Sequence record: NC_048203.1
DNA length: 64,000 nucleotides
From: Escherichia phage vB_Eco_mar003J3
Reading direction: 5' to 3' (one strand)
Part shown: one piece after another, positions 13,500 to 52,731 of the stretch
Position numbering within the stretch: position 1 is the first letter of the stretch
Layout of the letters: the number at the start of each line of letters is the position of its first letter
Notes under the pieces: generated by a model
What the model was told of the DNA's origin: nothing
What the model saw: only the letters and a program-made list of their open reading frames with translations
Database searches by the model: none
Position numbers and translations under genes: made by a program

Positions 13500-13570
13500 A
13501 TACACATAAATTTGAGAGAGAAAGTTTCGGATTGATAAGAAAGTCCGAAGCAGAAAAATAAAAATTGTAC

Positions 13571-13600
13571 TTGTCAAATCCTCCCGATTTAATGTATAAT
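13571..13600 (+). promoter_or_regulatory. T5-type sigma70 promoter
   Basis: TTGTCA-18 bp-TATAAT followed by ATATACATAAATTGATGAGAG. Confidence 0.65.
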
Positions 13601-19625: not shown

Positions 19626-19632
19626 TAATAAA

Positions 19633-19664
19633 CCCCAGTGGATTATCCACTGGGGTTTTCTTTT
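19633..19664. terminator. bidirectional intrinsic terminator between convergent early and late units
   Basis: CCCCAGTGG-ATTA-TCCACTGGGG hairpin with T-run on + strand and A-run before it. Confidence 0.7.
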
Positions 19665-30264: not shown

Positions 30265-30875
30265 AGACTTTCCCTCAAGGAAAGTGAAATACCAGTATAT
30301 GTACCATTACTATTTAACGTAGAGCCAAAACTGTCTCCGTTCATTAATTTAGTTCTAAACAGAATACCATTAAATACCGGTTTCTCACTACCCGTAGTAG
30401 TAATGAATAGATCAGGATAAACACTTATATTCCAAGTATTTCCTGCTGTGTTGATAGAAGTGATTTTGTACACTTTTGGATGGTTGGACAATTTAAATAA
30501 ATCGCCTGGTTTAGGCAGTCCACGAAGTGTACCTTTAGTGTCCATAATAACTATTGAACCTTTTTGTCCGGCAGGAATATTTACAGCACTAGTATCACCA
30601 CGAACTCGGAAAGCTTCATATTGTGGTAATAACACATCAATATAGCTACCTGTTCTTTTATAATCTAGAATGAATGAGTCTAATTTAGCAAATTCATCTG
30701 GGAATAATTCTGGATAAGAGATATTAATACCCCAATATTGAGCAGACACCTTAACCTCCCTAACTTTACCATTAGGTAATTCATCACGAATCATAGGGTC
30801 ATTGTCTACTAAGTTAACGCTTTCAAAACCTAACCCTGATAGCTCTGGGTTCGTGTATGGGTCTGGTAGTCTCAT
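30261..30875 (-). CDS. distal tail protein pb9-like
   Basis: 204 aa, immediately downstream of the tape measure gene. Confidence 0.75.
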   Translation of the reverse strand: MRLPDPYTNPELSGLGFESVNLVDNDPMIRDELPNGKVREVKVSAQYWGINISYPELFPDEFAKLDSFILDYKRTGSYIDVLLPQYEAFRVRGDTSAVNIPAGQKGSIVIMDTKGTLRGLPKPGDLFKLSNHPKVYKITSINTAGNTWNISVYPDLFITTTGSEKPVFNGILFRTKLMNGDSFGSTLNSNGTYTGISLSLRESL

Positions 30876-30901
30876 AGTTAATTTCTCCTCTTAATAACAA
30901 T

Positions 30902-30930
30902 ATTATAATAGGATTGGAAAATTTTATCAA
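30902..30930 (-). promoter_or_regulatory. sigma70-like promoter upstream of pb9 gene
   Basis: On - strand TTGATA-17 bp-TATAAT, 30-60 nt upstream of the pb9 start. Confidence 0.4.
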
Positions 30931-30945
30931 GAAATTTTTATTTTT

Positions 30946-30976
30946 CCATAAAGAAAAGGAGGACATAAAGTCCTCC
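30946..30976 (-). terminator. intrinsic terminator after tape measure gene
   Basis: GGAGGAC-loop-GTCCTCC hairpin followed on - strand by a T-rich run. Confidence 0.55.
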
Positions 30977-30983
30977 TCCAGTA

Positions 30984-33900
30984 TTAAGAATTACCAAGTG
31001 ATTTCAGGGTGGTTCCATTCTCATTAAGAGCCTGTTCTACGGCATCCCTGAAAGCAGCACTGTTGCTCGAAGCAAAGTCTCGGAAGCTAGCCGCATCCAT
31101 CGTACTGATGTTCAGCACAATAGGTCTACCCGATGTACCCTTTGAAGATCCTTTGAGTTCATCAGTAGGAGTAGCCTTCATCGGAACCATAGGAGTGATT
31201 ACTTCGGTACCATGTTCACCCATCTGGTAACTAACTCCAGGATACATATTACCACCTTCTGCACGGGGTACGAAAGAGTTAGCATTACCAATCCCTTGAT
31301 CTCCTCGAATATAAGAAAGCTCACCTGCGTTAGCCGACATAGAAACGTCTACGTTCTTCTGGCGCTCTCCAAGAGTTAAGTAACCAGCTGTCTCAGCACC
31401 AGAGTCCCCAATAGAAGACATACCAGATGCAGAGGATGCTTGAGCAAGAGCCATAGCACCTGCTAAACCAGCCGCAACCATCAGAGGAATAGAGAATGGA
31501 TACGGAACAGCTGTTGCTGCCTGCATCACCGCTACTGCCGTCTGGATAATGATTTGCTTCTTAGCCGCATCTTGCTGGATCTTGAGCTTTTCAGCCTCTA
31601 ACTTCTTGATCTTAGCTTTAGATTGCTCAGATTTACCATCACGTTTCTGTTCTGCTGCAATAGCTGCATCAATAGCACTTACCTGTTGACCAACACTATA
31701 CTGAATCATTGAAGATACAGTTTGCATACCAGCCGCTACTAGAGAAGTGGTATCCAGAGATCCTTGTGAAAACTGGATCATAGCATTAGTTAGGTTACCC
31801 ATGCTTTGTGCTACAGCAGTTGCTTCGGAGTTCAGTTCAGACAGCTTAGAAATAGCCTGGTCATAGGATGCCATTCTATTCTGCATATCCATATTTGCTT
31901 TATCATCTCCTTCCAGTCCAGTTGTTGGAGTGTAAACACCACCAACAGAAGAAGTGACTTGCTGCTGCATCTGAGCATCACGTTGCATCTTAAGCTGTGC
32001 TAGAGCTGCCGAAGTTTCTTGGATTTTACGCTTATACTCTTCCTGAGCTTGTGCATTTCCTTTTGTAATTTCCAGTAAACTTTGGTACAGAGCTTGCTGT
32101 TCGGTTAGTCTCTGAGATTCCCCCGTAACGTTTCTGCTAGTCTGTGAAATATTAAGAGCTCTTTCACGTCCAGAAGCCATTTCCCTTTGCTGATCCTGAC
32201 GGAATTTCCAGATTTCACGTTCAATTTGTGCCTGAGCTCGTCTTGATTGTTCAGCTTCCTTATGCTTATCAACCTGTTTGGAGTACCATTCATACTTTTC
32301 TTTCTCGATAGTCAGTTCAAGGTTCAACTGAGCTAAACGATACTGAGTATCTGTCATAGTACGGTTATTCAGGAGAGCTATTTCACGATCAACACCAAGA
32401 ATCTTATCAGTATAGTCCTTAACCTTCTTCTGAGCTTCCATACCCTGGTTAGTGATCTTGATACGTTCTAACTGAATCTTAGCTATCTCACCTTCGATTG
32501 CTTTGTTACCCTTGTTAGTTTCTAGGACACGCTTAAGAGCTGCTTCCTGTTCTTCTAACTGTTGGATTTCCAGACGTCTACCAGCTTCCTGTGCTTTCTC
32601 TTTGTCCTTAGTCTGGTTGTATACTTCTGCAATTTTCTGCTGAACTTCTAACTGATTCTTAGTCTCATTACCAGTTAATTTTACGTAACCAGCAAGAGCT
32701 TGTGAAGCAGTCTTCATCTCACTAAGAGTATTATACCCTAAGTTCAGGCTCTTAACATACTCATCAGCATTTTTACCAGTACCAGCAGATAAAGACTCAA
32801 TAGTCTTAATCGTATCTGATAGGGATGCACTAGTTTTAGCCGCAGTGTTAGTGTTCTGAGCGATGTTCTGGATATCGTTAGCTAAATCACTAGCAGTTTT
32901 CTTAGCCTGGTCATATGCTTTCTGCTGTTCTGTCAATCCTTTCAGAGTTGCAGAGTTAAAGTCATAAACCGCATCCGGGTCATTTGCATCTTTCTGTAGG
33001 TTAATTTGCTTCTGGAATTCTGTATTAGATTTGGCTGCTGCAGCACCAGCAGCTTGGTATGCCGATTTCCATGCATTAAGATTGCCAGTTGAATCCTCTA
33101 CTTCCTTATCAAGACGCTCTACCTGGAGAGCTAATGCAGCAGTATCTGCAATGAATTTCTGGTTTTCTTCAGAAGATCCTATGCGAACTCCTCCTACTTC
33201 AAAACCTCCTGCAGCTAATCCTACCGGTGCACCTTGAGCAACTAAACGAATAGCCCCTGCTGTAGATGCATCTGCTTGCTGCATACGCTTATCTAGATCA
33301 GCTTTTAACTTATTACGCTTTTCTAGAGATTCTTTGTACATATCAAGAGCTTTATTATATCCTTCCTCAGAAGCGGAAAGACTTAAAGCTACAGCACCAA
33401 CGTTAGTTGGGTCAATCTGACGGTTAGTTTCTTCCTGTGCTCTAGCAGCAGAGGCCGAGATAGATGCTTGAGAAGTATAGAACACTGCGTTGATAGAATC
33501 AATTACTGGCCCTAAATACTTAGCAGCAGCCTGTTGAACCTTTCTCAGGGCAGCATCAGCATTAGCAGCAAACTGTTCCCAAGAGGTTGCACGAAGTACA
33601 TCATCAAGATAGCCGAAACGTTTAGTAGATTCAGCGATTACTGCGTTAGCATATGCTTGTTGCTTCTGGAAAGTAGAGAGACTATTAACGTTATATGTAA
33701 TACCTGTGTTAGCAGCATTTAACTGTTTAACGTAGTCAGCGTAAGCATCGTTAAGACGAATAGTAACACCAAGTTCGTCCAGAAGTTCGATTTCTTGTTT
33801 AGATACACCCTTGATTACACGGTTAAGTGCATCAGTCATATCAACACCAAGAACAGCAGCAGCACGACGAGCTACTAGACCAAATTTATTAAGTTGTTCA

Positions 33901-34691
33901 GCATCAAATCCATATGCAGAGGCAGAGGATGCCTGTCTCATTGCTTCTTCAAAGGAGATTGCATAACCAGCAGCCTCTTGTAGAGATCTAGCTAGAGTTT
34001 GTACAGGAGTACCTGTTTGAGTACCAACAATAGTACCAAACTTCTCAAGACGGTTTAACTGGTCACCCATCTTAAGTTGTTCGAATGCAGATTGTAGAAC
34101 GAACACGTTAGACGCAATAGCAGCATACATAAGAGGTAGAGAACCACCAACTTTAGCCATTGCTGCGAAGTCACGAGTAGCACCTCGTGCAGAACCAGAG
34201 GTATTACCTAGAGCACGACTAGCACGACCTGCGGATGTGGTAGTATCATTGAAGCCTCTAGTAGTACCCGACAAAGCACGGTTTGTATCGTATAATCTAT
34301 CTTGAACTTTTTCAGTTGCAGCAGCTACATCGTTACCCATTGCCTTAACAGATTTACCAACATGTGTAAATCCAGACTCTAGCTTATCAGATACCTCAAT
34401 CATAGCAATAGCAAGGTCATCTAACTTAGCACCAATACTATCCATAGATTTGGTGATGCCCATCATACCTCTGCTAGCCTGCATTTTTGTTAGACTTTTG
34501 GCTGCCCTATCTGCTGCCCTCTCAATGGAATAAAGAGTTTTGGGCATTTTTCCTAGCTGCTCATTAGTCAGTTCGGAAGCAGCAGCAGCGTTTTCTAACG
34601 CATCAGATACGTTTTCAATAGACTTTGCAGTACGGGTTGCCCCTTTCTGCTTTACATCTATAAGTAATTCTCGTATTAGCTTATCAGTCAT
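30984..34691 (-). CDS. tape measure protein pb2-like
   Basis: 1235 aa, long coiled-coil, C-terminal Gly/Ala-rich hydrophobic segment; canonical position. Confidence 0.9.
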   Translation of the reverse strand: MTDKLIRELLIDVKQKGATRTAKSIENVSDALENAAAASELTNEQLGKMPKTLYSIERAADRAAKSLTKMQASRGMMGITKSMDSIGAKLDDLAIAMIEVSDKLESGFTHVGKSVKAMGNDVAAATEKVQDRLYDTNRALSGTTRGFNDTTTSAGRASRALGNTSGSARGATRDFAAMAKVGGSLPLMYAAIASNVFVLQSAFEQLKMGDQLNRLEKFGTIVGTQTGTPVQTLARSLQEAAGYAISFEEAMRQASSASAYGFDAEQLNKFGLVARRAAAVLGVDMTDALNRVIKGVSKQEIELLDELGVTIRLNDAYADYVKQLNAANTGITYNVNSLSTFQKQQAYANAVIAESTKRFGYLDDVLRATSWEQFAANADAALRKVQQAAAKYLGPVIDSINAVFYTSQASISASAARAQEETNRQIDPTNVGAVALSLSASEEGYNKALDMYKESLEKRNKLKADLDKRMQQADASTAGAIRLVAQGAPVGLAAGGFEVGGVRIGSSEENQKFIADTAALALQVERLDKEVEDSTGNLNAWKSAYQAAGAAAAKSNTEFQKQINLQKDANDPDAVYDFNSATLKGLTEQQKAYDQAKKTASDLANDIQNIAQNTNTAAKTSASLSDTIKTIESLSAGTGKNADEYVKSLNLGYNTLSEMKTASQALAGYVKLTGNETKNQLEVQQKIAEVYNQTKDKEKAQEAGRRLEIQQLEEQEAALKRVLETNKGNKAIEGEIAKIQLERIKITNQGMEAQKKVKDYTDKILGVDREIALLNNRTMTDTQYRLAQLNLELTIEKEKYEWYSKQVDKHKEAEQSRRAQAQIEREIWKFRQDQQREMASGRERALNISQTSRNVTGESQRLTEQQALYQSLLEITKGNAQAQEEYKRKIQETSAALAQLKMQRDAQMQQQVTSSVGGVYTPTTGLEGDDKANMDMQNRMASYDQAISKLSELNSEATAVAQSMGNLTNAMIQFSQGSLDTTSLVAAGMQTVSSMIQYSVGQQVSAIDAAIAAEQKRDGKSEQSKAKIKKLEAEKLKIQQDAAKKQIIIQTAVAVMQAATAVPYPFSIPLMVAAGLAGAMALAQASSASGMSSIGDSGAETAGYLTLGERQKNVDVSMSANAGELSYIRGDQGIGNANSFVPRAEGGNMYPGVSYQMGEHGTEVITPMVPMKATPTDELKGSSKGTSGRPIVLNISTMDAASFRDFASSNSAAFRDAVEQALNENGTTLKSLGNS

Positions 34692-34702
34692 TTATTTTTC
34701 CC

Positions 34703-34736
34703 AATAAAAAAGGCTCTGGGCAAATCACCCAGAGCC
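34703..34736 (-). terminator. intrinsic terminator upstream of tape measure gene
   Basis: GGCTCTGGG-loop-CCCAGAGCC hairpin followed on - strand by TTTTTTATTGGGAAAAATAAATG, the last ATG being the tape measure start. Confidence 0.6.
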
Positions 34737-34774
34737 AAGCCTCATCGTGGAACGCCCATTGGAGGAAACTTTTA

Positions 34775-35140
34775 CTAAGCTCGAGATCTAGCATGTGGTT
34801 TAATGTTCGGAGTACGACCATTAGGTTTACTATGCTTCTCGGCTCTCTTACGAGCTGCATCTACAGCTTTCGAATCAAATATATTGATAATGTGTAGAAC
34901 AAACTCTTTCTCTATAGGATCAGTAATCCCATAGATATCAAATAAAACACCTAATGCACTTTTGTCTTTCCCTATAAATATAGGAAAGTCACCGGGTATG
35001 AAACAATCAATAAGACTATTATAAATATTCATACTAGTAGATACAATAGGTGGAAAATCTTCGAGCTCAACAGGCATTGCCTTAGGATCAGGTTCAATAC
35101 CTAGAGACTCACAAAGCATTAAATATTGTTGTTTTGTCAT
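34775..35140 (-). CDS. tail assembly chaperone, downstream (+1 frame) segment
   Basis: 121-aa ORF directly upstream of the tape measure gene; frame is open upstream to 35227 and overlaps the end of ORF 35202..35606; no good SD before its ATG. Confidence 0.55.
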   Translation of the reverse strand: MTKQQYLMLCESLGIEPDPKAMPVELEDFPPIVSTSMNIYNSLIDCFIPGDFPIFIGKDKSALGVLFDIYGITDPIEKEFVLHIINIFDSKAVDAARKRAEKHSKPNGRTPNIKPHARSRA

Positions 35141-35201
35141 TTTAGATGCTGAGGATTTAATGCATTTATCTGCAAAATCGGCAACAGCATCTAGTAACTG
35201 C

Positions 35202-35606
35202 TTACGCTTTTGAGCTACGAAAAGTGTCTAAGTGGAACACTGTCTGGTTGATCCAAGAATCAAACGCAGCAGAGTTCTGCATAAGCATGATAGCATTATC
35301 GCGGCTAAATGGAACTTCAGTAGTAGGATCAGCTTCAGTTTCGATAAGCATCAGCTTCTCAACATCTCCAATCGTCAAGCCAGTCCAGCCAGCAATTGCA
35401 GTATCAACGAAAGCTTCAATAAACTTATCATCGTCCTGAACCTGAATCATAGTACCGTTAACCCACTCGTCACGCTTAGCGGAAGAGATAACACGTTTAG
35501 ATGCAGCACGAGACATGTAGTTCAGTTGTAGCTTGAAGTTAGGCATACCTGGATAAGCCAGCTCAATAGTACGAGTTTCAAGGGTAATATCTTTTAAATT
35601 GATCAT
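35202..35606 (-). CDS. tail assembly chaperone
   Basis: 134-aa ORF in the canonical position upstream of the tape measure gene. Confidence 0.55.
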   Translation of the reverse strand: MINLKDITLETRTIELAYPGMPNFKLQLNYMSRAASKRVISSAKRDEWVNGTMIQVQDDDKFIEAFVDTAIAGWTGLTIGDVEKLMLIETEADPTTEVPFSRDNAIMLMQNSAAFDSWINQTVFHLDTFRSSKA

Positions 35607-36502
35607 TTCTTTATTTCTCCAAAGAAGTCGATTCTTACCGGATCAGAGTCTGCAGTAGGGATTACATCCCATTCAACTCTATATATATCCGAGAATTGTA
35701 GGCGTTTTGTTATACGTGTTGAAGGAAAATCTATCGAAATATGTTCATTTCGGATGGTTAATGGTATGTCAGTTTCGGGTTCAATATTATAAAACATATC
35801 ACCAGCAAATCGCTTGGTGTAGTAAAATGCAATTGTTGCCGAAGCATTCATTTCATTAACATAAGCTCTCTTATTATTATATATTTTGTTTATGTCAAAT
35901 ACGCTTTTATCTTCCCTCCAAGAACATTGTTGCTGGAATGACATAGAAGCGGATAAAAGAGCTGGTAAAACGTTACTATTGGTAGATACTCTAGGAGGAC
36001 TATATGATATGACTTCACCCTGAACAATAGAACCAGCAGGGGTAGAAGTGGATACCTCAGAGAACTTACCAGATTCAATTCCTACGTTTAGAATAGGAAC
36101 GCTTTTATCTAGAGAAAAGTCTACAGTAGATACATAGCAATTCTCAAAGTACACACAGTTATTATCTTTATTAACTATGTATATATTAAACATTGTTGGC
36201 TCAATATTTGTACTATAAAGTGGTAGTAAGAATGTGTTACCCTCTCGGTCAAAGCCCATCCATTCAAAGAAGTTAGCTTCAGTAAGGGTATTACTAAAAT
36301 TTATAGCCAGCGATATTGAAGATGGAGTTTGTGCATTAATAATAGAGTCAGCATAGTTGGTTCTACGATGTATAGTCCTACGAAGAGTTTTAAATTCCTC
36401 ATAGGACGTATTGATATCGTAATTTGACAGGGCATCAAAATGATAAGCCCTGCCATCGTACTCAACTATAACTTTTGACTCCCTCATTAGAGAGTAGTAC
36501 AT
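35603..36502 (-). CDS. minor tail protein (p140-like)
   Basis: 299 aa between tail tube and chaperone genes; 4-bp overlap. Confidence 0.5.
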   Translation of the reverse strand: MYYSLMRESKVIVEYDGRAYHFDALSNYDINTSYEEFKTLRRTIHRRTNYADSIINAQTPSSISLAINFSNTLTEANFFEWMGFDREGNTFLLPLYSTNIEPTMFNIYIVNKDNNCVYFENCYVSTVDFSLDKSVPILNVGIESGKFSEVSTSTPAGSIVQGEVISYSPPRVSTNSNVLPALLSASMSFQQQCSWREDKSVFDINKIYNNKRAYVNEMNASATIAFYYTKRFAGDMFYNIEPETDIPLTIRNEHISIDFPSTRITKRLQFSDIYRVEWDVIPTADSDPVRIDFFGEIKK

Positions 36503-36506
36503 TTAA

Positions 36507-37916
36507 TTAGCCACCAGAAGCAGTAACTGTAATGCTCTTAGTACCTTCTACACCAGAACCATCTTTAGCTACAGCTTTCACAGTAACTGCACCGGTCTTA
36601 GAAGCATCAGCGGTTAGTAACCCAGAAGTTGCATCAATAGTGGCAGCAGTACCAGAGGAAATAGACCAAGTTACTTCCTTATTAGTAGCTTCAGCAGGTA
36701 AAACATCTACAGTCATCTGAAGAGTTGCACTATTCTCGACGGAAGTTGCATCACCCGCAGATTTAACAGTAATACCTGTTACTTTTACTGGAGCTGCTTT
36801 ACCACCGTCACCAGTTGCAATCAGATTTGCAATAGTAGCTTTGGTGTACTTATTAGAGAAACCAAGATAACCTTCATCACCAGTATCCAGATCAGTAGGA
36901 ATTGCTTTGAACTCTACAGAAGTACCAAGTACATCGTCAGTCTCAATAGTTGGGATGTTTACGTGGGCTTGCTTAGCAACCAGAACAGCAGCAGGGCGCT
37001 CATCATCATATTCACCACCAAGTACTAGAGCGATTTCGAAACGGTTAACTACTTTCAGGGTCTTAATTAGATCTTTGTACAGATCCATAGAACCTAGAGC
37101 TTTATCGTTAAGATAAGCAGTTAGAGAACCAGTTAGTTCGAATGCACCAGTAAATGAACCGATTGGGATGTTAACACGGGACATAACGTTCGGAGTCAGG
37201 TAGGTGATGTTGTTATTGATTGTAAAGCTACCACCAGTGATCGGAATGTCATATGCCTTACCAGTATCCATATCCTTAATTTTGAGGATAGTCAGTTTGT
37301 TCTTGGTATAAGAACCCTGGATAGTCATGTAAGTTTCATCATCAATACCTACAGTATCAGGATCAAATGGAGCAGCATCCAGAGGGATCAGCTGGTTACC
37401 ATTACCTGACCAAGTTACACGACCGATATCTTCGATATCAACGTTTACTTCAGCCTGGTTGATCTGGCAGGAATCGATGTAGCTCCATGCTTTATCAGTA
37501 AGGATGTAAATATGTAGCATTGCCAGTTCGTGGTATGCGTTATCCTTAAAGTTAACCATGAAGTTAGTTTCGTTAGTGTGTGCACCTGTATCACCATCTA
37601 GGTTGATAGGCTTACCACTAGAAAGAGCATGCCACAGCATGTAGTCCGGAACGATCTGCTTACTCGTAGTCTTGTCTAAGTAAGGCAGGATGTAAGTAGA
37701 GAAACTCCACTCAGCTGCGTTCAGGGAGTCGTTGAAACGTTTTGAACCACGAGTTGGACGCGGACCAGCTTCGTTAACAGTAATATCGGTTGAGTTACTG
37801 TCCTGACCCCAAGAAATATCATCTTGAACTAGAATCTCTTGCGTGTTGGTCTTATCGTGACCAGTCTTAACCGTAGACACGAAGATTCGAGTATTACGTA
37901 ATAGTTGTAAAGACAT
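36507..37916 (-). CDS. major tail tube protein pb6-like with C-terminal Ig-like domain
   Basis: 469 aa; C-terminal Big_2-like KVTGITVKSAGDATSVENSATLQMTVDVLP...; strong RBS AGGAGA. Confidence 0.85.
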   Translation of the reverse strand: MSLQLLRNTRIFVSTVKTGHDKTNTQEILVQDDISWGQDSNSTDITVNEAGPRPTRGSKRFNDSLNAAEWSFSTYILPYLDKTTSKQIVPDYMLWHALSSGKPINLDGDTGAHTNETNFMVNFKDNAYHELAMLHIYILTDKAWSYIDSCQINQAEVNVDIEDIGRVTWSGNGNQLIPLDAAPFDPDTVGIDDETYMTIQGSYTKNKLTILKIKDMDTGKAYDIPITGGSFTINNNITYLTPNVMSRVNIPIGSFTGAFELTGSLTAYLNDKALGSMDLYKDLIKTLKVVNRFEIALVLGGEYDDERPAAVLVAKQAHVNIPTIETDDVLGTSVEFKAIPTDLDTGDEGYLGFSNKYTKATIANLIATGDGGKAAPVKVTGITVKSAGDATSVENSATLQMTVDVLPAEATNKEVTWSISSGTAATIDATSGLLTADASKTGAVTVKAVAKDGSGVEGTKSITVTASGG

Positions 37917-37942
37917 TTATTTATATTCTCCTAATCTGTAAC

Positions 37943-38428
37943 TTATCTGCGAAGTGCCCTACGAGGTGGCTGATACCTCACTGTTACATTTATTTCCGCT
38001 AAACCATATGGGGCCAGTAGACCCTCATCTGTAGCTACTGAGGTAATGCTCATATCAGTTGCCTCACATGGGAAGGTCGATCCATTAGGTTTACTAACAG
38101 TATATTCTAAATTTCCACCTGTGTCAATGACGGTTTTTATGTCAGCTACGAGTTTTTCAAGTTGCTCTTGAATATCTGTTTTCTCTTTGTCATACACGAG
38201 GATTGGAAGTTCTAAAAACATCCACTGTTGGCCTGAGGGAAGATACTGCCCAGTTTCAGTTCCGATATGGACTGCCACATAAGGAAATTCTCGGATTTCC
38301 TCGAATTTATAAGTTTGACGAGAAACGTTTCCATAAAGGTTATTGAAATACTCGTCAGGTTGTGAACCATCCATTTGTGTGGCGATTCGGTCAACCACTG
38401 CTTGTGCAATACTTGTTCTGTGATCCAT
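37943..38428 (-). CDS. tail terminator protein (p142-like)
   Basis: 161 aa; immediately upstream of the tube gene. Confidence 0.6.
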   Translation of the reverse strand: MDHRTSIAQAVVDRIATQMDGSQPDEYFNNLYGNVSRQTYKFEEIREFPYVAVHIGTETGQYLPSGQQWMFLELPILVYDKEKTDIQEQLEKLVADIKTVIDTGGNLEYTVSKPNGSTFPCEATDMSITSVATDEGLLAPYGLAEINVTVRYQPPRRALRR

Positions 38429-38431
38429 TTA

Positions 38432-39199
38432 TTAGGTTCCTTGATTAACCTTGATTTTATATCTAGAGTGAATCAGGTCTCTTGCAGCTTTTGCGATTGC
38501 TTCCCCAATAAGTTTTTGAGGGTTTCGAGCGCCAGGGTAAGGTCGTAGAGAAAGTCTTCGATATGTAGAAACTGCGGGGTTGAACACAGAGTAAGGACGA
38601 ACCATATAGTTATACGTCACATTCAGCTCTGGAGCACCTTTACTAGTTTCTGCATCACGTAACATAACATCTTTAATCTTTAAGGAGTTAGCAAAGCGAC
38701 CAGTTCTGAACTTCAATGGTGCCCCTGCTTTTTTCATATCCTTGATTAAGTATTCCTTAGCTACTATCTCAAGAATAGCACGCATGTTACTATTTGATAC
38801 GAAACGACCGGAAGCACCTGTTACTGCACCTGAATAGCCATCTTCAGTATCTCTAGGATCTCCAAAGTTTACCTGAACTCTACCGGTAGAACGTTTTTTA
38901 CCAACAGCAGAACGTTTACCTGCGGTTGCTTGAATTAAATTCTCTAGAGCGCCTAAATCACCAGAAAGATCTAAGTTAGAAGAAACAGCCTTCAGTATAG
39001 ATGCTGTCCTAACATTTAATAAGTCTTGTGATACTGGTTTTGAGAATTTGAAAGATACCTGTGCAACTGTGCCATCTCTTGTAGGATCCTTCAAACCAGT
39101 CTCAACTGTATATACAACAGTATTCTTATTATTCTCAGATCGTCCTGCAGTATCTAGCTGCTCTTTAATAATTTGTCTAGCTAGATCAGAAAGAGCCAT
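38432..39199 (-). CDS. tail completion protein (p143-like)
   Basis: 255 aa; synteny. Confidence 0.5.
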   Translation of the reverse strand: MALSDLARQIIKEQLDTAGRSENNKNTVVYTVETGLKDPTRDGTVAQVSFKFSKPVSQDLLNVRTASILKAVSSNLDLSGDLGALENLIQATAGKRSAVGKKRSTGRVQVNFGDPRDTEDGYSGAVTGASGRFVSNSNMRAILEIVAKEYLIKDMKKAGAPLKFRTGRFANSLKIKDVMLRDAETSKGAPELNVTYNYMVRPYSVFNPAVSTYRRLSLRPYPGARNPQKLIGEAIAKAARDLIHSRYKIKVNQGT

Positions 39200-39711
39200 T
39201 ACACTCTCCTATAGACTTCGATGATTGTACGAATATGTTCTGGAATACCAGACTTAGTATTGTTAAACGTAACTGTCTCACCACCAATAGTCTTGGCTTG
39301 ACGATAATCTTGCTTATGCCAGTGATCTACTAACAGACATGCTGCCAGTTTAAGATCTTCAGGCATTGGATTGAAACCACCTTGAGTATACTCTACATCC
39401 ATATATCCTTCAGGAGGATTAAACTTAAGGAGGATAACACCATCAGGATACAGTTTAAACTGTTCCGTATCTATTTCATTCTCGTTAATAGTCATCTTTG
39501 TAATAGATGTGGCTGAAGGAGAACTCAGGAAATATTTCCTACGGCTAGGTTTTGTGGTGATTAATTGATCTACCGCATCTGCATCATCCATACCTAGAAG
39601 GCTTGTAATCAGCGTATTGGCAGCTTTAATCATCATCTCAACCTGAGTTTCCATATCAGGACGTTTTAAATTCCCATATAGTTTATAATCTTCAACAGTG
39701 ATGATTTGCAT
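39199..39711 (-). CDS. head completion / connector protein (p144-like)
   Basis: 170 aa; follows the capsid gene terminator. Confidence 0.5.
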   Translation of the reverse strand: MQIITVEDYKLYGNLKRPDMETQVEMMIKAANTLITSLLGMDDADAVDQLITTKPSRRKYFLSSPSATSITKMTINENEIDTEQFKLYPDGVILLKFNPPEGYMDVEYTQGGFNPMPEDLKLAACLLVDHWHKQDYRQAKTIGGETVTFNNTKSGIPEHIRTIIEVYRRV

Positions 39712-39722
39712 TTATTTTTCCC

Positions 39723-39749
39723 AATAAAAAAGGAGAGCCGAAGCTCTCC
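39723..39749 (-). terminator. intrinsic terminator after major capsid gene
   Basis: GGAGAGC-CGAA-GCTCTCC hairpin followed on - strand by TTTTTTATTGGGAAAAATAAATG. Confidence 0.65.
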
Positions 39750-39770
39750 TTATCGGCTGAAAAGCCTGTA

Positions 39771-41147
39771 TTAAGATGCAGCGTAAGCACCAGATACAAC
39801 GCCGTTTTCGAAGTAACGTTGCAGGTTAACACGCTGAGTAACGTAGTATGCGTCACGCTGTTTGCCAGCTTGGCGCTCACGTTCAACAGTAACAGCACGC
39901 TGACGCGGCATTACGAAGTTATCTTTATAAACAATAACTGCGAATTCTGCAGAAGCAGCTTTAGCTGGGAAGTACTCAGAAACTACAACCGGCAGACCGT
40001 AAATACGACCAACCTGACCCTGCAGTTTAACAGCATCGTTACCAACCTGGGCAACATCCTGCCATTCTTCATCTTCCAGCAGATCGTAGTAAGCATCCAT
40101 AGATACGATCAGTACCAGTTTGCTCAGTTTCAGACCATGACGGCCCAGTTTACGACGCAGCTTGGAGATAGTCTTAGCAGTTACCAGAACAGAACCGTCA
40201 GCTTTAGCTTCGGTAACAACCTTAGCACCATCATCAGCAGCCAGTTTCAGCAGACCCTTAGGCTGACCAGTACCATTACCAGACATGAAAGCTTCTTCGA
40301 TAGAAACAGCGTGTGCTTCGATCAGACGCTTACGCAGCAGAGGCAGCAGGGAGAAGATTGCATCTTCTTCAGTTTCATCAGTGATGAAGGACTTAGCAGC
40401 CAGCTTGTAAGTTTTGAAGCTGATTTCAGTCAGTTGACCTTTAACTTCGTCACCAACAGTTTCGTCAGTACCGAATTTGGAAGCATCTACCCAAGTAGCA
40501 CGACCAGCTTCTGGTTCAACGAGCATTGTAAGGATTTTGCTGGACATTGGCAGTTCATCGAACAGTGCACCAACTACCAGTTCCTTCTGCAGGTCACGGA
40601 TAATACGGGTAGAGAAGATAGTTTCGTATGCTTCGCTAGACATGGAAACGGAAGAAGAACCGTTAACAGCTTTAACGTGAGCCTTACCATGTTCAGTTTC
40701 GAATACGTCTTTCTCCATCATATAAGACAGAAGAACCAGTTTCTCAACTTCATCTTCGAAAGCATCCTGAGTGCCATAAAGAGCTTTAGCTACGCTATCA
40801 CCAACGAAGGAACGACCTTCACGAGCTGCCAACAGAGACTTGATTTCGTCCTGAAGACCAACGATGGTTTCCTGCTGCTTTTCTACAGTCTGTGCGAACA
40901 GTTCTGCGCTCTTCTTAGACTTCTCGTCCAGGTTCTTAACCAGATCCAGAGCTTCTTCCAGACGCTTACGGTCTTCACCAACAGCTTTAGATACTAGGTC
41001 ATTCATACGAGACAGTTCTTTTTCTTCCTGCTCTTCACGCAGACGCTTAGCTTCCGCAGCTTTCTGAGCAGCAGTCAGACCTTCCAGAGATTTAGCCAGA
41101 TCACCCAGACCAAGTTCTTCCTTCAGCTTATTAATATCAATAGTCAT
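39771..41147 (-). CDS. major capsid protein pb8-like (HK97 fold)
   Basis: 458 aa (the size I recall for T5 pb8); N-terminal scaffolding-like coiled coil; RBS GGAG. Confidence 0.9.
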   Translation of the reverse strand: MTIDINKLKEELGLGDLAKSLEGLTAAQKAAEAKRLREEQEEKELSRMNDLVSKAVGEDRKRLEEALDLVKNLDEKSKKSAELFAQTVEKQQETIVGLQDEIKSLLAAREGRSFVGDSVAKALYGTQDAFEDEVEKLVLLSYMMEKDVFETEHGKAHVKAVNGSSSVSMSSEAYETIFSTRIIRDLQKELVVGALFDELPMSSKILTMLVEPEAGRATWVDASKFGTDETVGDEVKGQLTEISFKTYKLAAKSFITDETEEDAIFSLLPLLRKRLIEAHAVSIEEAFMSGNGTGQPKGLLKLAADDGAKVVTEAKADGSVLVTAKTISKLRRKLGRHGLKLSKLVLIVSMDAYYDLLEDEEWQDVAQVGNDAVKLQGQVGRIYGLPVVVSEYFPAKAASAEFAVIVYKDNFVMPRQRAVTVERERQAGKQRDAYYVTQRVNLQRYFENGVVSGAYAAS

Positions 41148-41164
41148 TTTTAAATAATTCTCCG

Positions 41165-41797
41165 TTATTCTTTAACGTAGCCTAAAGCTATCGCAAGTTT
41201 TTCTAGTTCAGAAAGATTACGTTCTTGAGCTGGGACAGCCTTAGAACTTGTTGCAGTAAAAGATTTGCGCCATTCAGTGTAATCGTGACCATTCATACTC
41301 TTAGCGAGGTTGAACGTTGAGTCCTGATTACAAGGTACAGAGACTACCGAAACTTCGTATAGTTCTAAATCTTTAATAATAAATATGTCAGTAGCTTCAT
41401 CCCATTCTGCGTCTAGGCAGCGGAATCCGATACTGAATGTTTTCAGTACACCGTTTTTAATTAGTGAGAAGATAGCTGGATCAGAACTTTCATAAATCTC
41501 GCATTCAATTTCGAGACCCATTTCAGTAGGGTTAAGATCAATACACTTGCCGATTGGACGACGATGGTCGTGGCCGAAAAGAATAATCGGGTTTTTCATG
41601 TAGTTAACAAGTGCATTAGACGTTTTCCATGCCGAAGCAGGAATTACGTCACCAGCGCGATCTTTACTAATTGTATTAGCGAATCCACGGATTTTTATAA
41701 CACCCTCTTTGGATTCGCTATCAATAGACTTAATGTAAGCGTCTAAATGAACCGGTGCTGATTTTAACTTGTTATAGTCAATAGCAGCATTTGTCAT
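41165..41797 (-). CDS. prohead protease pb11-like
   Basis: 210 aa between portal/decoration and capsid genes. Confidence 0.8.
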   Translation of the reverse strand: MTNAAIDYNKLKSAPVHLDAYIKSIDSESKEGVIKIRGFANTISKDRAGDVIPASAWKTSNALVNYMKNPIILFGHDHRRPIGKCIDLNPTEMGLEIECEIYESSDPAIFSLIKNGVLKTFSIGFRCLDAEWDEATDIFIIKDLELYEVSVVSVPCNQDSTFNLAKSMNGHDYTEWRKSFTATSSKAVPAQERNLSELEKLAIALGYVKE

Positions 41798-41800
41798 TTA

Positions 41801-42283
41801 TTAAGCCTCCGGCGCAGGGTTGATAGTTGTTACACACTCATTAGAAGTAATGGAAGTAGATTTACTATCCGTTACAACAACTTTGTAAGTACCAGCATCT
41901 TCTGCAGCAGCTGTAGCTTTGTTGAAATTAGGGCCAGTAACACCACTTAGTGGAGAACCGTCTTTAGTCCAAGCATAAGTATATGGTGCAGTACCACCAG
42001 TAACTGTTACACCCAGATTAATTGCTGCACCAGTATCAACAGCTAGAGTTTTAGCCAGATTCTTTGTGAAAGCTAGTGCCGGAACAACCGGAGCAGTAAT
42101 TTCGTATGCTTCTTTGAACTTGTTCCAAACCTTGCGGTTGGTATGTGCAGTGGTCATTCCAAACTCTTTACGTAGAGTAGCGTAGTTTGGAACGAACTTG
42201 TGTGCTGCAACCGTAGCAAAGAAGATATGAGATTCTGGCAGCTTTTCACCAAAAATGGCCTTTAGACCAGCATAATCAATCAT
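41801..42283 (-). CDS. capsid decoration protein pb10-like (C-terminal Ig-like domain)
   Basis: 160 aa; C-terminal Ig-like TGGTAPYTYAWTKDGSPL...GTYKVVVTD. Confidence 0.7.
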   Translation of the reverse strand: MIDYAGLKAIFGEKLPESHIFFATVAAHKFVPNYATLRKEFGMTTAHTNRKVWNKFKEAYEITAPVVPALAFTKNLAKTLAVDTGAAINLGVTVTGGTAPYTYAWTKDGSPLSGVTGPNFNKATAAAEDAGTYKVVVTDSKSTSITSNECVTTINPAPEA

Positions 42284-50638: not shown

Positions 50639-50682
50639 GTTTAAAACTCCAGATTATTTAATTAACTTTTTCGGGAATATAA

Positions 50683-50700
50683 GCGGGGAATATTCCCCGC
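50683..50700. repeat. 18-bp perfect palindrome GCGGGGAATATTCCCCGC (copy 1)
   Basis: Lies in a 30-bp segment identical to 52705-52734; between the A1-like gene stop and the next gene. Confidence 0.9.
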
Positions 50701-50713
50701 TGATTAAATTTAA

Positions 50714-52378
50714 TTAGGCAAAGAATTTGCCATTTTTGAAATCAATCAAGGTACGTTGACCGTTTGCATATGTAATTAAATGCGTTTGCGTCCAGCTTGA
50801 CGCGCCAACGTTGTAACCCATATCGAGACTACCAGCAACGCCAGCGGTATAAACGCCGCCGTATATACTAGCCGTGTGAGTGTGGCCCGTGTTGAGGCGT
50901 CCTAACTTTTTAAACTGTTTAGGATTGCCCCGACTGCCGTTAATGCCGTTGTGACCATGTACACCGCATTCAATTCCTGCAATCTTGAAAGATTGGTCAG
51001 TAGTCAGGAAAATAGCGTTAAATTCGCAACCTGCAACGTTTCTAAGCGCATAATCCAATACGTTAAAGGTATCATCTTGTTTTGCAATAGCCGCATAAAT
51101 CGCAGCGTTTAGGCTGTGATACAGTTCGGCGTTTGCGGGGTCGTCTTTAATGTTAGCGTTACGATCATCAAGCCAACGGGATAACGCCAAATCATGATTG
51201 GATTCCACGATGATTGTTTGAGAAAAATCGCGCTCCATTGACTCCAACACGCGACCGGTATCAATGAGATCGTCAATAACTTTATCACGTCCGGCGGCGT
51301 ATTGTTTCGCAAGGAATACACCACTTGCGCGGTTGTGATGGTTACGCGATGTAAAATCATGCACATCATGAATAAACTGATATTTCGGTTTAAGAATATC
51401 AAGCAAGCTATTTTCGCCCACCCATGATGCAACGGCGCATTCATCATCTAATTTTTCGGCGTGAATATCGCCATATTGCAAGCCTAGAACATGATCGGAC
51501 GTTTCAAAACATCCGGTAGGCATAGCGCAAATATTCAAATCATAAAACATTCCGCTTTCATCCATTGTTTCAAGCTGGCGAACAAAAAATTCGCCGTCGT
51601 CGTCAAATTCTACCAACAAAGCGCCGTAATTATGCAGCGCCTCAGCTTTTTGACCTGCTTTCTGCTGAATATAGTTTTTAAGTGTAGCCGTTCCGGTGGA
51701 GTACATACGGCGCACTACTTCACCTTTTAACGCTGGCACACTTTCAGCGGTAATTTTAGCGTGACCAATTGCCAGACCTTCAATATTTAAAGCCGTGGCG
51801 GTTTCTGCGAATCCTGAAAGCGGATAGTCTGCCGTTGGTAACACGTTAATTTCAGCCATGAAAGCAAAACGGCGATTATTTAAAAATACGTTTTTCTCGC
51901 AAATATATTTATTAAATGCGGGATCGTATTTAATGCCTTCGTTACCTTCTCCATTCTGGAAGCCGTTTTTATTGTAAATGAATTTACTAACCAGCAATTC
52001 ACCGCCGATATATTCAGCGAATTGCTCAAGCACTTTCAAAAAGTTTTTATGTGGGAAAGTATTATTTTGAATCGACGTTAGAATAAAACGGCGACCGGAT
52101 TTAACTTCCCACTGTTCCACGGTACTAGAAACAATCCCCGCCGCTTCTGGGCGATCATCATTTTTAATCGCCTTTTCAGCTTTTGCCGCTTTCGGTTTCG
52201 CTGGCTTATTTGCTTCCAGCCAGTCACAAATTGCGGTCGAATGTTTCGGCGTGTCATAAACAGCTTTTGAAATATCGTCACAAACTTCCAATTTAGTAGC
52301 GCGTAAACGCTTGCCATAGAAATTAAAATCAGCGGCAAGTTTAGTGATCTGGGACTGTTTTTCTGCGGAAATATTCAT
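50714..52378 (-). CDS. A1: pre-early A1-like metallophosphoesterase
   Basis: 554 aa; calcineurin-like motifs GDIH, HDVHDF, ESNHD, GVHGHNG, GHTH; adjacent to dmp as in T5. Confidence 0.8.
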   Translation of the reverse strand: MNISAEKQSQITKLAADFNFYGKRLRATKLEVCDDISKAVYDTPKHSTAICDWLEANKPAKPKAAKAEKAIKNDDRPEAAGIVSSTVEQWEVKSGRRFILTSIQNNTFPHKNFLKVLEQFAEYIGGELLVSKFIYNKNGFQNGEGNEGIKYDPAFNKYICEKNVFLNNRRFAFMAEINVLPTADYPLSGFAETATALNIEGLAIGHAKITAESVPALKGEVVRRMYSTGTATLKNYIQQKAGQKAEALHNYGALLVEFDDDGEFFVRQLETMDESGMFYDLNICAMPTGCFETSDHVLGLQYGDIHAEKLDDECAVASWVGENSLLDILKPKYQFIHDVHDFTSRNHHNRASGVFLAKQYAAGRDKVIDDLIDTGRVLESMERDFSQTIIVESNHDLALSRWLDDRNANIKDDPANAELYHSLNAAIYAAIAKQDDTFNVLDYALRNVAGCEFNAIFLTTDQSFKIAGIECGVHGHNGINGSRGNPKQFKKLGRLNTGHTHTASIYGGVYTAGVAGSLDMGYNVGASSWTQTHLITYANGQRTLIDFKNGKFFA

Positions 52379-52674: not shown

Positions 52675-52704
52675 TTTAATAACTCCGGTCAAAGGGAAAT
52701 TATA

Positions 52705-52722
52705 GCGGGGAATATTCCCCGC
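52705..52722. repeat. 18-bp perfect palindrome GCGGGGAATATTCCCCGC (copy 2)
   Basis: Identical 30-bp context to copy 1; followed on - strand by TATAAT. Confidence 0.9.
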
Positions 52723-52731
52723 TGATTAAAT

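Follow-up and report, generated by a model that had tools for sequence, protein, structure and literature searches.

Several genetic systems provide a framework for the sites described here. In phage T7, the intrinsic terminator T-phi lies directly after the major capsid gene 10; it is incomplete, and the downstream tail genes are expressed at a lower level via read-through. Internal operon attenuators are also known from Escherichia coli, at the rplL-rpoB terminator and at terminator T1 of rpsU-dnaG, where dnaG additionally has a poor ribosome site. The virion of phage T5 contains about 775 copies of the capsid protein compared with 12 of the head completion protein, and about 120 copies of the tail tube protein compared with 3 of the tape measure protein. 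All gene classes of T5 are transcribed by the host sigma-70 polymerase, and the mechanism of the switch to late transcription is not known (PMC7472727).

Among the Demerecviridae, the records of Lindwurm (OK143207), Sugarland (NC_042093) and PR1 (NC_041913) contain the same or homologous hairpins, with a ribosome binding site annotated right after the terminator. Lindwurm and Sugarland carry predicted terminators after the capsid gene as well as before and after the tape measure gene, and PR1 carries the last two only. These annotations, which already mark the sites as predicted terminators in related phages, are software predictions. The identity of the tails, their strong conservation and the third copy of a shared 11-mer are not annotated in any of the three records. 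Here, we describe the sequence anatomy, conservation and structural covariation of these sites and their positions relative to known promoters.

Hairpin junctions in the late structural region

The analyzed window, a stretch of 64,000 nucleotides, belongs to a T5-like phage of the genus Epseptimavirus. The features of its late region relevant to this study are the following (all on the minus strand):

39771..41147, minus strand: major capsid protein gene (458 aa), last gene before terminator A
39755..39766, minus strand: small hairpin GGCT-TTTC-AGCC ahead of hairpin A, behind the capsid stop codon
39730..39751, minus strand: predicted terminator hairpin A, AAGGAGAGC-TTCG-GCTCTCCTT, 20 nt after the capsid stop codon
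39709..39731, minus strand: shared tail of site A, with the U-tract TTTTTTATT (39731..39723), GGG (39722..39720), AAAAATAA (39719..39712) and ATG (39711..39709)
39199..39711, minus strand: head completion protein gene (170 aa; PF24163, E 1e-78), first gene after terminator A
38099..38127, minus strand: promoter P-J5 (TTGACA-17-TATACT) inside the tail terminator gene, 'promoter P-J 5' in the T5 record
34775..35606 (35202..35606 and 34775..35140), minus strand: two tail-assembly-chaperone ORFs, last genes before terminator B
34737..34771, minus strand: conserved stem-loop (TTTCCTCCA...GAGGCTT) upstream of hairpin B, from folding and comparison
34712..34736, minus strand: predicted terminator hairpin B, GGCTCTGGGT-GATTT-GCCCAGAGCC, after the second chaperone ORF
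34689..34711, minus strand: shared tail of site B, with TTTTTTATT, GGG, AAAAATAA and the tape measure ATG (34691..34689)
30984..34691, minus strand: tape measure protein gene (1235 aa, pb2 homologue), sole gene between terminators B and C
30955..30979, minus strand: predicted terminator hairpin C, directly after the tape measure stop codon
30902..30954, minus strand: tail of C, TTCTTTATGGAAAAATAAAAATTTC, with the third copy of GGAAAAATAAA (30947..30937), running into P-G25
30930..30925 (TTGATA) and 30907..30902 (TATAAT), minus strand: promoter P-G25, serving the distal tail protein gene; labelled 'promoter P-G 25' on the orthologous stretch of the T5 record

The gene identities given in the initial annotation for capsid, head completion and tape measure proved right, and the two chaperone ORFs match positions 12-141 (35202..35606) and 170-255 (34775..35140) of phrog_313. 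That annotation had also reported an identical 24-nt stretch behind a GC hairpin at both sites, ending in the start codon of the next gene, which we confirmed: the 24-mer CTTTTTTATTGGGAAAAATAAATG is present in exactly two copies in the window (34689-34712 and 39709-39732, minus strand), each coming after a GC hairpin and ending in the ATG of the tape measure or the head completion gene, respectively. The positions had been given about 2 nt off, and the loop CGAA at A corresponds to the plus-strand reading of what is TTCG on the minus strand. The number of matches expected by chance was 0.00 (100 dinucleotide shuffles), and a scan of the window for further copies, as had been suggested, revealed none beyond the two at up to three mismatches. 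Because the last C-C of both stems is common, the true identity is 25 nt.

A shorter element is shared with a third site. The 11-mer GGAAAAATAAA is found in exactly three copies in the 64 kb, compared to 0.07 expected, and every copy stands right after one of the late terminators A, B and C. It is absent from the terminator-like hairpins that the window contains in its early and pre-early regions. Hairpin C is annotated as a terminator in Lindwurm, Sugarland and PR1, and its stem varies between genera, showing normal drift in the same genomes. Compared with the T5 promoters P-G25 and P-J5 (AY692264; Bujard-type strong sigma-70 promoters), the tail of C contains GGAAAAATAAA within the A-rich upstream block of P-G25, whereas sites A and B have no usable -35 or -10 hexamers and run straight into an ATG, which argues against promoters at these two sites. 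Both promoters, which the T5 record places upstream of the tail tube gene (P-J5) and after the tape measure gene (P-G25), are conserved in the window, and the P-J5 stretch of T5 is nearly identical to that of the window; P-J5 restarts transcription for the tail tube gene, downstream of A.

Sequence anatomy of sites A and B

Hairpin A consists of 7-9 bp with a UUCG tetraloop (core stem -12.2 kcal/mol). Its core GGAGAGC-TTCG-GCTCTCC covers 39749..39732, and flanking A-T pairs extend it to 39751..39730; it is followed by TTTTTTATTGGGAAAAATAA and the head completion ATG at 39711..39709. Hairpin B comprises 10 bp (stem -19.1 kcal/mol) and begins 39 nt past the stop codon of the chaperone ORF. Folding of the complete intergenic stretches gave -21.2 kcal/mol (A) and -31.9 kcal/mol (B), both with z around -3. 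Each site shows a GC-rich stem-loop on the transcribed strand, and the tract TTTTTTATT (8/9 T) abuts both stems, with 7-8/9 T in every lineage having the sites. Both are located on the coding strand shortly after a stop codon, at plausible ends of transcription units, with P-J5 and P-G25 further downstream, and they rank first and third among the terminator-like sites in 27-47 kb. A search with the Rfam 15 covariance models gave no match at A, B or C, and three chance-level matches (E 0.2-0.6) elsewhere in 30000-42000. We found no mapping of T5 transcript 3' ends in the literature.

Read as RNA, the 24-mer is composed of the U-tract UUUUUUAUU, a weak Shine-Dalgarno (SD) motif GGG, the A-rich unstructured spacer AAAAAUAA and AUG. 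At both sites, GGG(A) is placed 7-8 nt before the ATG and allows at most about four pairs including one G-U, which makes it a weak SD. Canonical motifs precede the genes for capsid (GGAG), tail tube (AGGAG) and distal tail protein (GAGGAG), whereas A and B have only GGG; distant relatives show GAGG or GGAG at the same place.

In the light of these features, the terminator assignment made in the initial annotation is well supported for both sites by a hairpin with an 8/9 U tail after a stop codon, a layout kept among relatives and the annotations in related phages. Judged from their sequence, A and B are best read as leaky intrinsic terminators joined to a ribosome site that is weak (GGG). When standard criteria are applied, the two hairpins have the look of strong terminators, which would count against leakiness.

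Like T-phi of T7, terminator A stands right after the gene of the most abundant virion protein. Unlike T-phi, which acts on T7 RNA polymerase, it would act on the host sigma-70 polymerase, no more than 20 nt separate the stem from the start codon, and the same design occurs at two sites. The E. coli attenuators share with these sites a partial intrinsic terminator within an operon, at dnaG combined with a weak start, that lowers a low-copy protein after high-copy ones, the leakiness being in our case what we infer; they differ in belonging to cellular operons and in their longer spacers.

Conservation among T5-like phages

Sites A and B have orthologues across the Demerecviridae. The layout of A (hairpin, U-tract, SD and an ATG 18-28 nt after the stem) was found in all 13 lineages, down to about 47% capsid identity, with stems unrelated in sequence; the layout of B was likewise present in the eight lineages examined, with the ATG 17-23 nt after the stem. 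Hairpin A is identical in T5, Sugarland, L065 and PR1, shows a compensatory change from G-C to A-T in L012/L021 and has wholly different stems in distant clades. At hairpin B, Sugarland carries the compensatory changes GGCCTAGGG/CCCTAGGCC (CTCTGGG to CCTAGGG plus the matching 3' arm), and the stems of L068 and L082 differ. Structure rather than sequence is kept in L012/L021, in Sugarland B and in the unrelated stems of L068-L082 with the same layout. Across lineages, the terminator hairpins are too divergent to align.

The upstream elements are also retained: PR1, Sugarland, L065 and L066 have the GGC...GCC stem before A, with different loops, and the CCTC(C)/GAGG(G) pairing before B is present in PR1, Sugarland, L065 and L068, while L066 keeps the CCTC/GAGG motif but not as a pairing of the minimum free energy fold. 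Site B is missing in the Vibrio-type clade, and a related clade in which the chaperone ORF is fused lacks a terminator of the site B type. Members of Tequintavirus have 3 extra nt before the ATG at B. In T5, the tail at B is split after TTTTTTATT by a homing-endonuclease gene (T5p137) between the U-tract and the tape measure ATG, so that the exact tail appears dispensable there.

Across about 25 distinct relatives, variation is limited to 3.4% of the intergenic columns at A, corresponding to 2/59 columns among 25 relatives, and to 4.8% at B. Of the flanking codon positions, 54-71% vary at third and 10-16% at first and second positions. Furthermore, Providencia phage PR1 shares 45 nt without a mismatch, next to proteins of 28-55% identity. 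These comparisons suggest that both spacers are under purifying selection. We consider the near-invariance of the spacers mildly unusual, together with the presence of GGAAAAATAAA after the third late terminator too. The extreme cross-genus conservation of the two spacers is the sole point beyond textbook expectation: the design is ordinary, the sequence unusually invariant. Near-invariant loops, spacer and flanks exceed what a plain terminator needs.

Alternative explanations and a probable step-down of late gene output

The identity of the tails could reflect ancestry, if those of A and B, and partly that of C, derived from a single terminator-tail cassette, through duplication or gene conversion within the late region. 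We regard this origin as possible, although somewhat doubtful. It fits with the 25-nt identity including the ATG, with the three occurrences of GGAAAAATAAA, always after a late terminator, and with the tails TTTTTATTTGGAGTAAATATG and TTTTTTATTTGAGGTAATAAAATG of L066, which resemble each other more than those of T5. However, homology ends at the last two stem bases, with unrelated stems, loops and flanks, and T5-like genomes in IMG/VR never contain more than two exact copies of the 24-mer. Variants are limited to a single copy (L012/L021, L013/L019 and L029 at A; L005, L014, L015 and L027 at B), which argues against ongoing homogenisation, and the tails of Sugarland, L065 and L068 differ between A and B under the same grammar. 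Moreover, AAATAAATG also ends the start region of the tail tube gene, suggesting a spacer generic for this phage, and the 11-mer at C falls in the A-rich upstream block of P-G25. The 'copied regulatory cassette' proposed in the initial annotation is thus weakly supported, given that the identity does not reach into the stem beyond its last bases, that each copy varies on its own and that other genera obey the same grammar with different letters. A dispersed repeat or mobile cassette was rejected, given at most two copies, an identity that ends at the stem and copies that do not change together. The identical tails are most readily accounted for by a tight functional grammar that constrains both sites alike, possibly over an ancient common origin, and not by a recent copy.

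Homing endonucleases offer another route to uniform spacers, which might serve as their landing or recognition sites, or as junctions where co-infecting phages exchange modules, kept alike by repeated gene conversion. Homing endonuclease genes are known to cluster beside capsid and other essential genes (10.1101/2023.03.23.533998), and T5orf172/CapR-type genes do occur here: T5 carries one in its B tail (T5p137), and L012, L019 and L021 carry one ahead of hairpin A, behind the capsid stop codon. Their insertion points differ, though, as the gene interrupts the tail at B but precedes the hairpin at A; co-conversion would homogenise flanking coding sequence, yet the flanks are diverse; the layout is kept in clades without any insertion seen; and such enzymes usually exploit conserved sites rather than cause conservation. 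We regard this explanation as very improbable. Still less credible, in our view, are promoters embedded in the head completion and tape measure genes, within the first codons, with the A-rich tail serving as their UP element in the manner of P-G25 at C. T5-type promoters carry an AAAAATT block near -43 (PMC3326045), the 11-mer at C lies within the annotated P-G25 stretch, and ATGCAA-18 nt-TATAAA follows downstream at A. Nevertheless, B has no acceptable in-register -10 hexamer, the TATAAA of A is TATAGA in T5 and hence not conserved, neither site appeared in the promoter scan output, and the resulting transcripts would lack the start codon of their host gene. A sigma-70 promoter with an UP element at A or B was rejected on the missing -10 at B, the unconserved -10 at A and the absence from the scan.

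Alternatively, the hairpins might act mainly after transcription, as 3' barriers that shield the capsid and tail tube messages from exonucleases and as 5' stem-loops protecting the downstream message once it has been processed by a cut in the AU-rich tail, the polymerase stop being secondary. Tandem hairpins at each site (a small or irregular one, then the main one), the UUCG tetraloop at A, the single-stranded AU-rich tail after the hairpins and a distance of about 20 nt from stem end to ATG in nearly all lineages, which places the stem at the border of a ribosome footprint, are compatible with this idea. We nonetheless consider it unlikely as the main role, as the conserved 8/9 U tail abutting the stem is a hallmark of intrinsic termination that a stability element does not need; both roles can coexist. 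To our knowledge, there is no candidate factor for such hairpin-plus-tail modules, and we judge it rather improbable that they are recognised in cis by a factor, either phage-specific or from the host, that coordinates expression after the three late terminators, be it an antiterminator, a processing enzyme or a translational repressor or regulator that binds RNA. Conservation above that of first and second codon positions, including loops and spacer, the 45 identical nt in PR1 despite the divergence of the adjacent proteins, the restriction of the 11-mer to the late terminators, the conserved CCUCC...GAGG stem-loop beside B and the still unexplained late-transcription switch of T5 (PMC7472727) would suit such a factor. 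On the contrary, the tail differs in Sugarland, L065, L066 and L068, which have the hairpins, T5 is viable without the 3' half of the tail at B, the AU hairpin that can form in the tail is weak and lacks significance (-1.5 kcal/mol, z -1.7), and Rfam yielded no match. If a trans-acting factor were involved, it would time or tune the low-copy virion genes and bear on late control of T5 by the host sigma-70 polymerase.

In our view, A and B are probably Rho-independent terminators within the late structural operon that step output down from high-copy to low-copy proteins. At both sites, the terminator would directly adjoin the region where translation of the following gene starts, with no base to spare. 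Most polymerases would halt at the hairpins after the high-copy genes, namely capsid before A, and tail tube, p140 and the chaperones, transcribed from P-J5, before B. Rare read-through would then provide message for the low-copy proteins (head completion, tail completion and tail terminator after A, tape measure after B), translated from a weak ribosome site, after which terminator C would end the tape measure unit and P-G25 would start transcription anew for the baseplate genes. As the ATG follows 20 nt after the stem at A and B (17-28 nt in all lineages), no promoter fits in between, and the essential downstream genes need read-through. From this arrangement we infer partial termination and a setting of protein ratios, in line with the virion copy numbers of T5. 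The attenuation before the tape measure gene put forward in the initial annotation is plausible, but B is better described as a step-down of the whole P-J5 unit (tail tube, p140 and both chaperone ORFs) than as setting a chaperone-specific ratio.

Two observations sit less easily with such a step-down: p140, a low-copy protein, is encoded upstream of B in the 'high' unit, and T5 manages without the 3' half of the tail at B.

If the step-down reading is right, these sites would represent a compact case of a large virulent phage matching gene output to virion stoichiometry with host-type signals only, i.e. strong promoters before high-copy genes, and a terminator plus a weak ribosome binding site before low-copy genes. 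This would be of use for the annotation and engineering of T5-like genomes, where insertions at these junctions, comparable to the natural homing endonuclease genes, would alter the dosage of downstream genes.

Hairpin-plus-tail modules of the late region

The minus strand carries the late structural genes in the order terminase, portal, decoration protein, protease and major capsid protein, followed by head completion, tail completion, tail terminator, tail tube and a p140-like minor tail protein, and finally two chaperone ORFs, tape measure, distal tail protein and baseplate hub. Between 33500 and 40500, the sequence is ~98% identical to that of Epseptimavirus genomes (Salmonella phages Stitch, Sw2 and oselot; Escherichia phage GreteKellenberger), and identity to T5-type Tequintavirus genomes is 80-90%. 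Roughly 550 Demerecviridae records gave matches in this comparison.

Features of the late region
39771..41147, minus strand, major capsid protein gene
39199..39711, minus strand, head completion gene
38127..38099, minus strand, promoter P-J5 (TTGACA-17-TATACT), conserved from T5
36507..37916, minus strand, tail tube gene
35202..35606, minus strand, first chaperone ORF
34775..35140, minus strand, second chaperone ORF
30984..34691, minus strand, tape measure gene
30979..30955, minus strand, terminator hairpin C, one of the three strongest terminator-like sites in 27-47 kb
30930..30902, minus strand, promoter P-G25 (TTGATA-17-TATAAT), conserved from T5

The initial annotation had reported two modules, each a hairpin followed by an identical 24-mer, and both were found as described: site A between the capsid gene and the ATG of the head completion gene, and site B between the second chaperone ORF and the ATG of the tape measure gene. 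On the minus strand, CTTTTTTATTGGGAAAAATAAATG occupies 39709-39732 and 34689-34712, and 100 shuffles gave 0 matches to this 24-mer. The proposed search for further copies returned 0 other matches at up to three mismatches in the window, nor did core sub-motifs of the 24-mer reveal hidden copies there. Since the final two stem bases (CC) are common to both sites, the identity amounts to 25 nt and ends at these bases; the two sites are unrelated in their stems (GGAGAGC/GCTCTCC at A, GGCTCTGGGT/GCCCAGAGCC at B), loops and upstream flanks.

Hairpins A and B are within the top three terminator-like sites of 27-47 kb. The whole intergenic regions fold with -21.2 kcal/mol (A) and -31.9 kcal/mol (B; z about -3 for the folds), including a second, smaller hairpin just upstream of the main one at both sites. 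The 24-mer resolves completely into a U-tract, a weak Shine-Dalgarno (SD) sequence, an A-rich spacer and the ATG. The U-tracts lie at about 39723-39731 (A) and 34703-34711 (B). The SD of the genes behind A and B is GGG only; elsewhere it is GGAG (capsid), AGGAG (tail tube) or GAGGAG (distal tail). As the spacer ending AAATAAATG also stands before the tail tube gene, it serves this phage as a general start context, which removes much of the surprise at the identity of the two tails. An AU hairpin with the GGG in its loop (UUUAUU-GGGAAA-AAUAAA) was rejected as not significant (-1.5 kcal/mol, z -1.7), and the idea that A and B are promoters or UP elements was discarded for lack of conserved hexamers. 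Rfam gave no match at the sites. The major nick positions of T5 presumably do not coincide with them.

Other hairpins were also observed in the window. A perfect palindromic hairpin, AGCGGGGAATATTCCCCGCT, occurs twice, at 50682-50701 and 52703-52724 (plus coordinates), with an identical GATTAAATTTA after either copy. The pair flanks a 554-aa ORF (50714..52378, minus strand) and forms another duplicated hairpin module. At 19630-19658, where plus-strand early and minus-strand late genes converge, a symmetric 13-bp hairpin AAACCCCAGTGGAT(T/A)ATCCACTGGGGTTT looks like a bidirectional terminator.

Conservation and origin of the two sites

Both sites were compared across 31 IMG/VR loci covering A and B, 53 loci retrieved via a capsid-protein profile, and the annotated records of Lindwurm, Sugarland, T5 and Providencia phage PR1. 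As a pair, sites A and B are real, not random, and strongly conserved. The modules are essentially unchanged in all Markadamsvirinae, with three additional bases ahead of the tape measure ATG in Tequintavirus. Among about 25 distinct sequences, 3.4% of the intergenic columns are variable at A (59 nt) and 4.8% at B (83 nt), compared to 54-71% of third and 10-16% of first and second positions in the flanking codons; at site C, directly after the tape measure stop codon, 10% of spacer columns vary. In PR1, 45 nt of site A are identical to the window despite neighbouring proteins of only 55% (capsid) and 28% (head completion) identity, and site B differs in nothing but its loop, a single base of the stem and two positions in the tail.

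In distant clades the stems are wholly different in sequence and the layout is kept: the hairpin (-12 to -19 kcal/mol) is followed by 9 nt with 7-8 U, then by an SD rich in purines (GGG, GAGG or GGAG) and by an A/T-rich spacer that leads to the ATG, with a stem-to-ATG distance of 17-28 nt, mostly about 20 nt. Because these hairpins are too divergent to align, cross-genus structure was assessed by folding each sequence singly. Compensatory stem changes occur in L012/L021 and in hairpin B of Sugarland.

The initial annotation had further suggested that the repeated 24-mer is a copied regulatory cassette. The identity itself is real, but the homology between A and B ends at the stem, and the cassette explanation is weakly supported. 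Exact copies never exceed two per genome, as seen in a scan of IMG/VR with an exact 21-mer (at most two copies per T5-like genome), and in other genera the A and B tails differ while sharing the same grammar. Variants are restricted to one copy at a time (A in L012/L021, L013/L019 and L029; B in L005, L014, L015 and L027), which shows that the two copies evolve independently. An ancient common origin of the two tails is possible. The exact 21-mer was also found in two IMG/VR phages that are not related; a pair of permuted 21-mers with matching composition yielded 0 and 2 matches, so that these occurrences are within chance and give no evidence for a travelling cassette. One case is an unrelated marine siphophage contig (L094 9509-9548, minus strand; same sequence in L125), in which the hairpin GCCGC-TTTTAA-GCGGC is followed by the identical TTTTTTATTGGGAAAAATAAATG and the shared 23-mer ends in the ATG of the contig's own tape measure gene (phrog_9483); its DNA had no match among 50,697 phage records. 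The other is a partial case (L135 5265-5285).

Homing endonuclease genes of the T5orf172 and CapR zinc-finger type (phrog_681) are present in some phages and absent in others at precisely these two junctions. In T5, such a gene (L020 7690-8476 = T5p137) lies between the U-tract of hairpin B and the tape measure ATG, standing in place of the GGGAAAAATAAA part and overlapping pb2 by ATGA at its end; tape measure expression therefore does not require the exact tail. In L012, L019 and L021 (about 1990-2650), the gene is inserted after the capsid stop codon, ahead of hairpin A, and comes with a hairpin of its own and a promoter-like palindromic stretch.

The two chaperone ORFs upstream of site B look like one gene with a +1 (or -2) frameshift at 35205-35227 (minus strand). 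Neither ORF matched Pfam; against phrog_313 (258 positions; PHROGs) they cover positions 12-141 and 170-255. The second ORF invariably occupies the +1 frame and stays open upstream as far as the last part of the first, the supposed spacer holds a conserved peptide (T[LP]FV..LL....FA[DE][KR]C[VI]K), and the ATG of the second ORF is not conserved, with Ile in Sugarland at the Met of T5. The Vibrio-type clade (L073-L076, L086), which has no site B, has the chaperone as one fused ORF (264-280 aa). ACT-TTT-CGT is a possible slip site (UUU to UUC). A +1 frameshift fusion of the two ORFs would give a product spanning ...DTF|VAQKRK... According to the Sugarland paper, T5-type chaperones lack a predicted frameshift signal.

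Site C and the shared 11-mer

With hairpin C, a terminator stands directly after the tape measure gene as well as before it, so that this gene is bracketed by terminators. In the region 30902-30979 (minus strand), the tail TTTTCTTTATGGAAAAATAAAAATTTC contains an 11-mer also present at A and B and leads into P-G25, a known T5 promoter. This 11-mer, GGAAAAATAAA, has exactly three copies in 64 kb (0.07 expected), each directly after hairpin A, B or C, and is absent from terminator-like hairpins of the early and pre-early regions in the window. At site C, the copy belongs to the A-rich block that lies upstream in the stretch annotated as P-G25. As such blocks are a known feature of T5 promoters (PMC3326045), the coincidence partly reflects A-richness serving two different purposes. 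An early-region promoter-like site at 13553-13600 (plus strand; GAAAAATAAAAATTGTAC-TTGTCA-18-TATAAT) has the same A-rich block as P-G25, which supports the block as a generic T5 promoter feature.

The invariance of A and B across genera, including loops, spacer and flanks, exceeds what a terminator needs; in the same genomes, the stem of terminator C differs from genus to genus. A stem-loop just upstream of hairpin B (34737-34771, minus strand) contains the anti-SD-like TTTCCTCCA, which pairs with GAGGCTT in the window, while in most relatives CCTC(C) pairs with GAGG(G). The CCUCC...GAGG motif and its pairing are kept in PR1, Sugarland, L065 and L068 with a varying interior; in L066 the motif is present and the predicted MFE fold leaves it unpaired. 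Together with the invariance and the three 11-mer copies, this stem-loop leaves room for a sequence-specific factor acting at late terminators, which we consider improbable.

Proposed termination and read-through in late gene expression

The expected terminator after the capsid gene is supported. Related genomes already carry predicted terminators at the positions of the two sites. The Lindwurm and Sugarland records place them after the capsid gene and before and after the tape measure gene, each followed by an RBS feature, and the PR1 record has terminators on both sides of the tape measure gene with a promoter after the second. The T5 record (AY692264) annotates no terminator. Its two classical promoters are P-J5, which lies within T5p142 and ahead of the tail tube gene, and P-G25, in the interval from pb2 to pb9. 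The literature search turned up no mapping of T5 transcripts by 3' ends or RNA-seq.

Termination at A and B is inferred, as is its efficiency. At both sites only 20 nt separate the stem from the next ATG, leaving no room for a promoter; the essential genes behind them could thus be expressed by read-through only, and A and B, if they terminate at all, must be leaky attenuators. The late region would then most likely consist of five units: one closed by terminator A after the capsid gene; the head completion, tail completion and tail terminator genes, reached by read-through only; the tail tube, p140 and chaperone genes, driven by P-J5 and ending at terminator B; the tape measure gene, again by read-through only, up to terminator C; and the baseplate genes from P-G25.

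The genes behind A and B encode low-copy virion proteins. Attenuation ahead of the tape measure gene is plausible; it would act on the P-J5 unit as a whole, not on the chaperones in particular, and would not be universal in the family. A and B would belong to a well-known kind of element, in which an intrinsic terminator passes directly into a weak start region ahead of low-copy genes.
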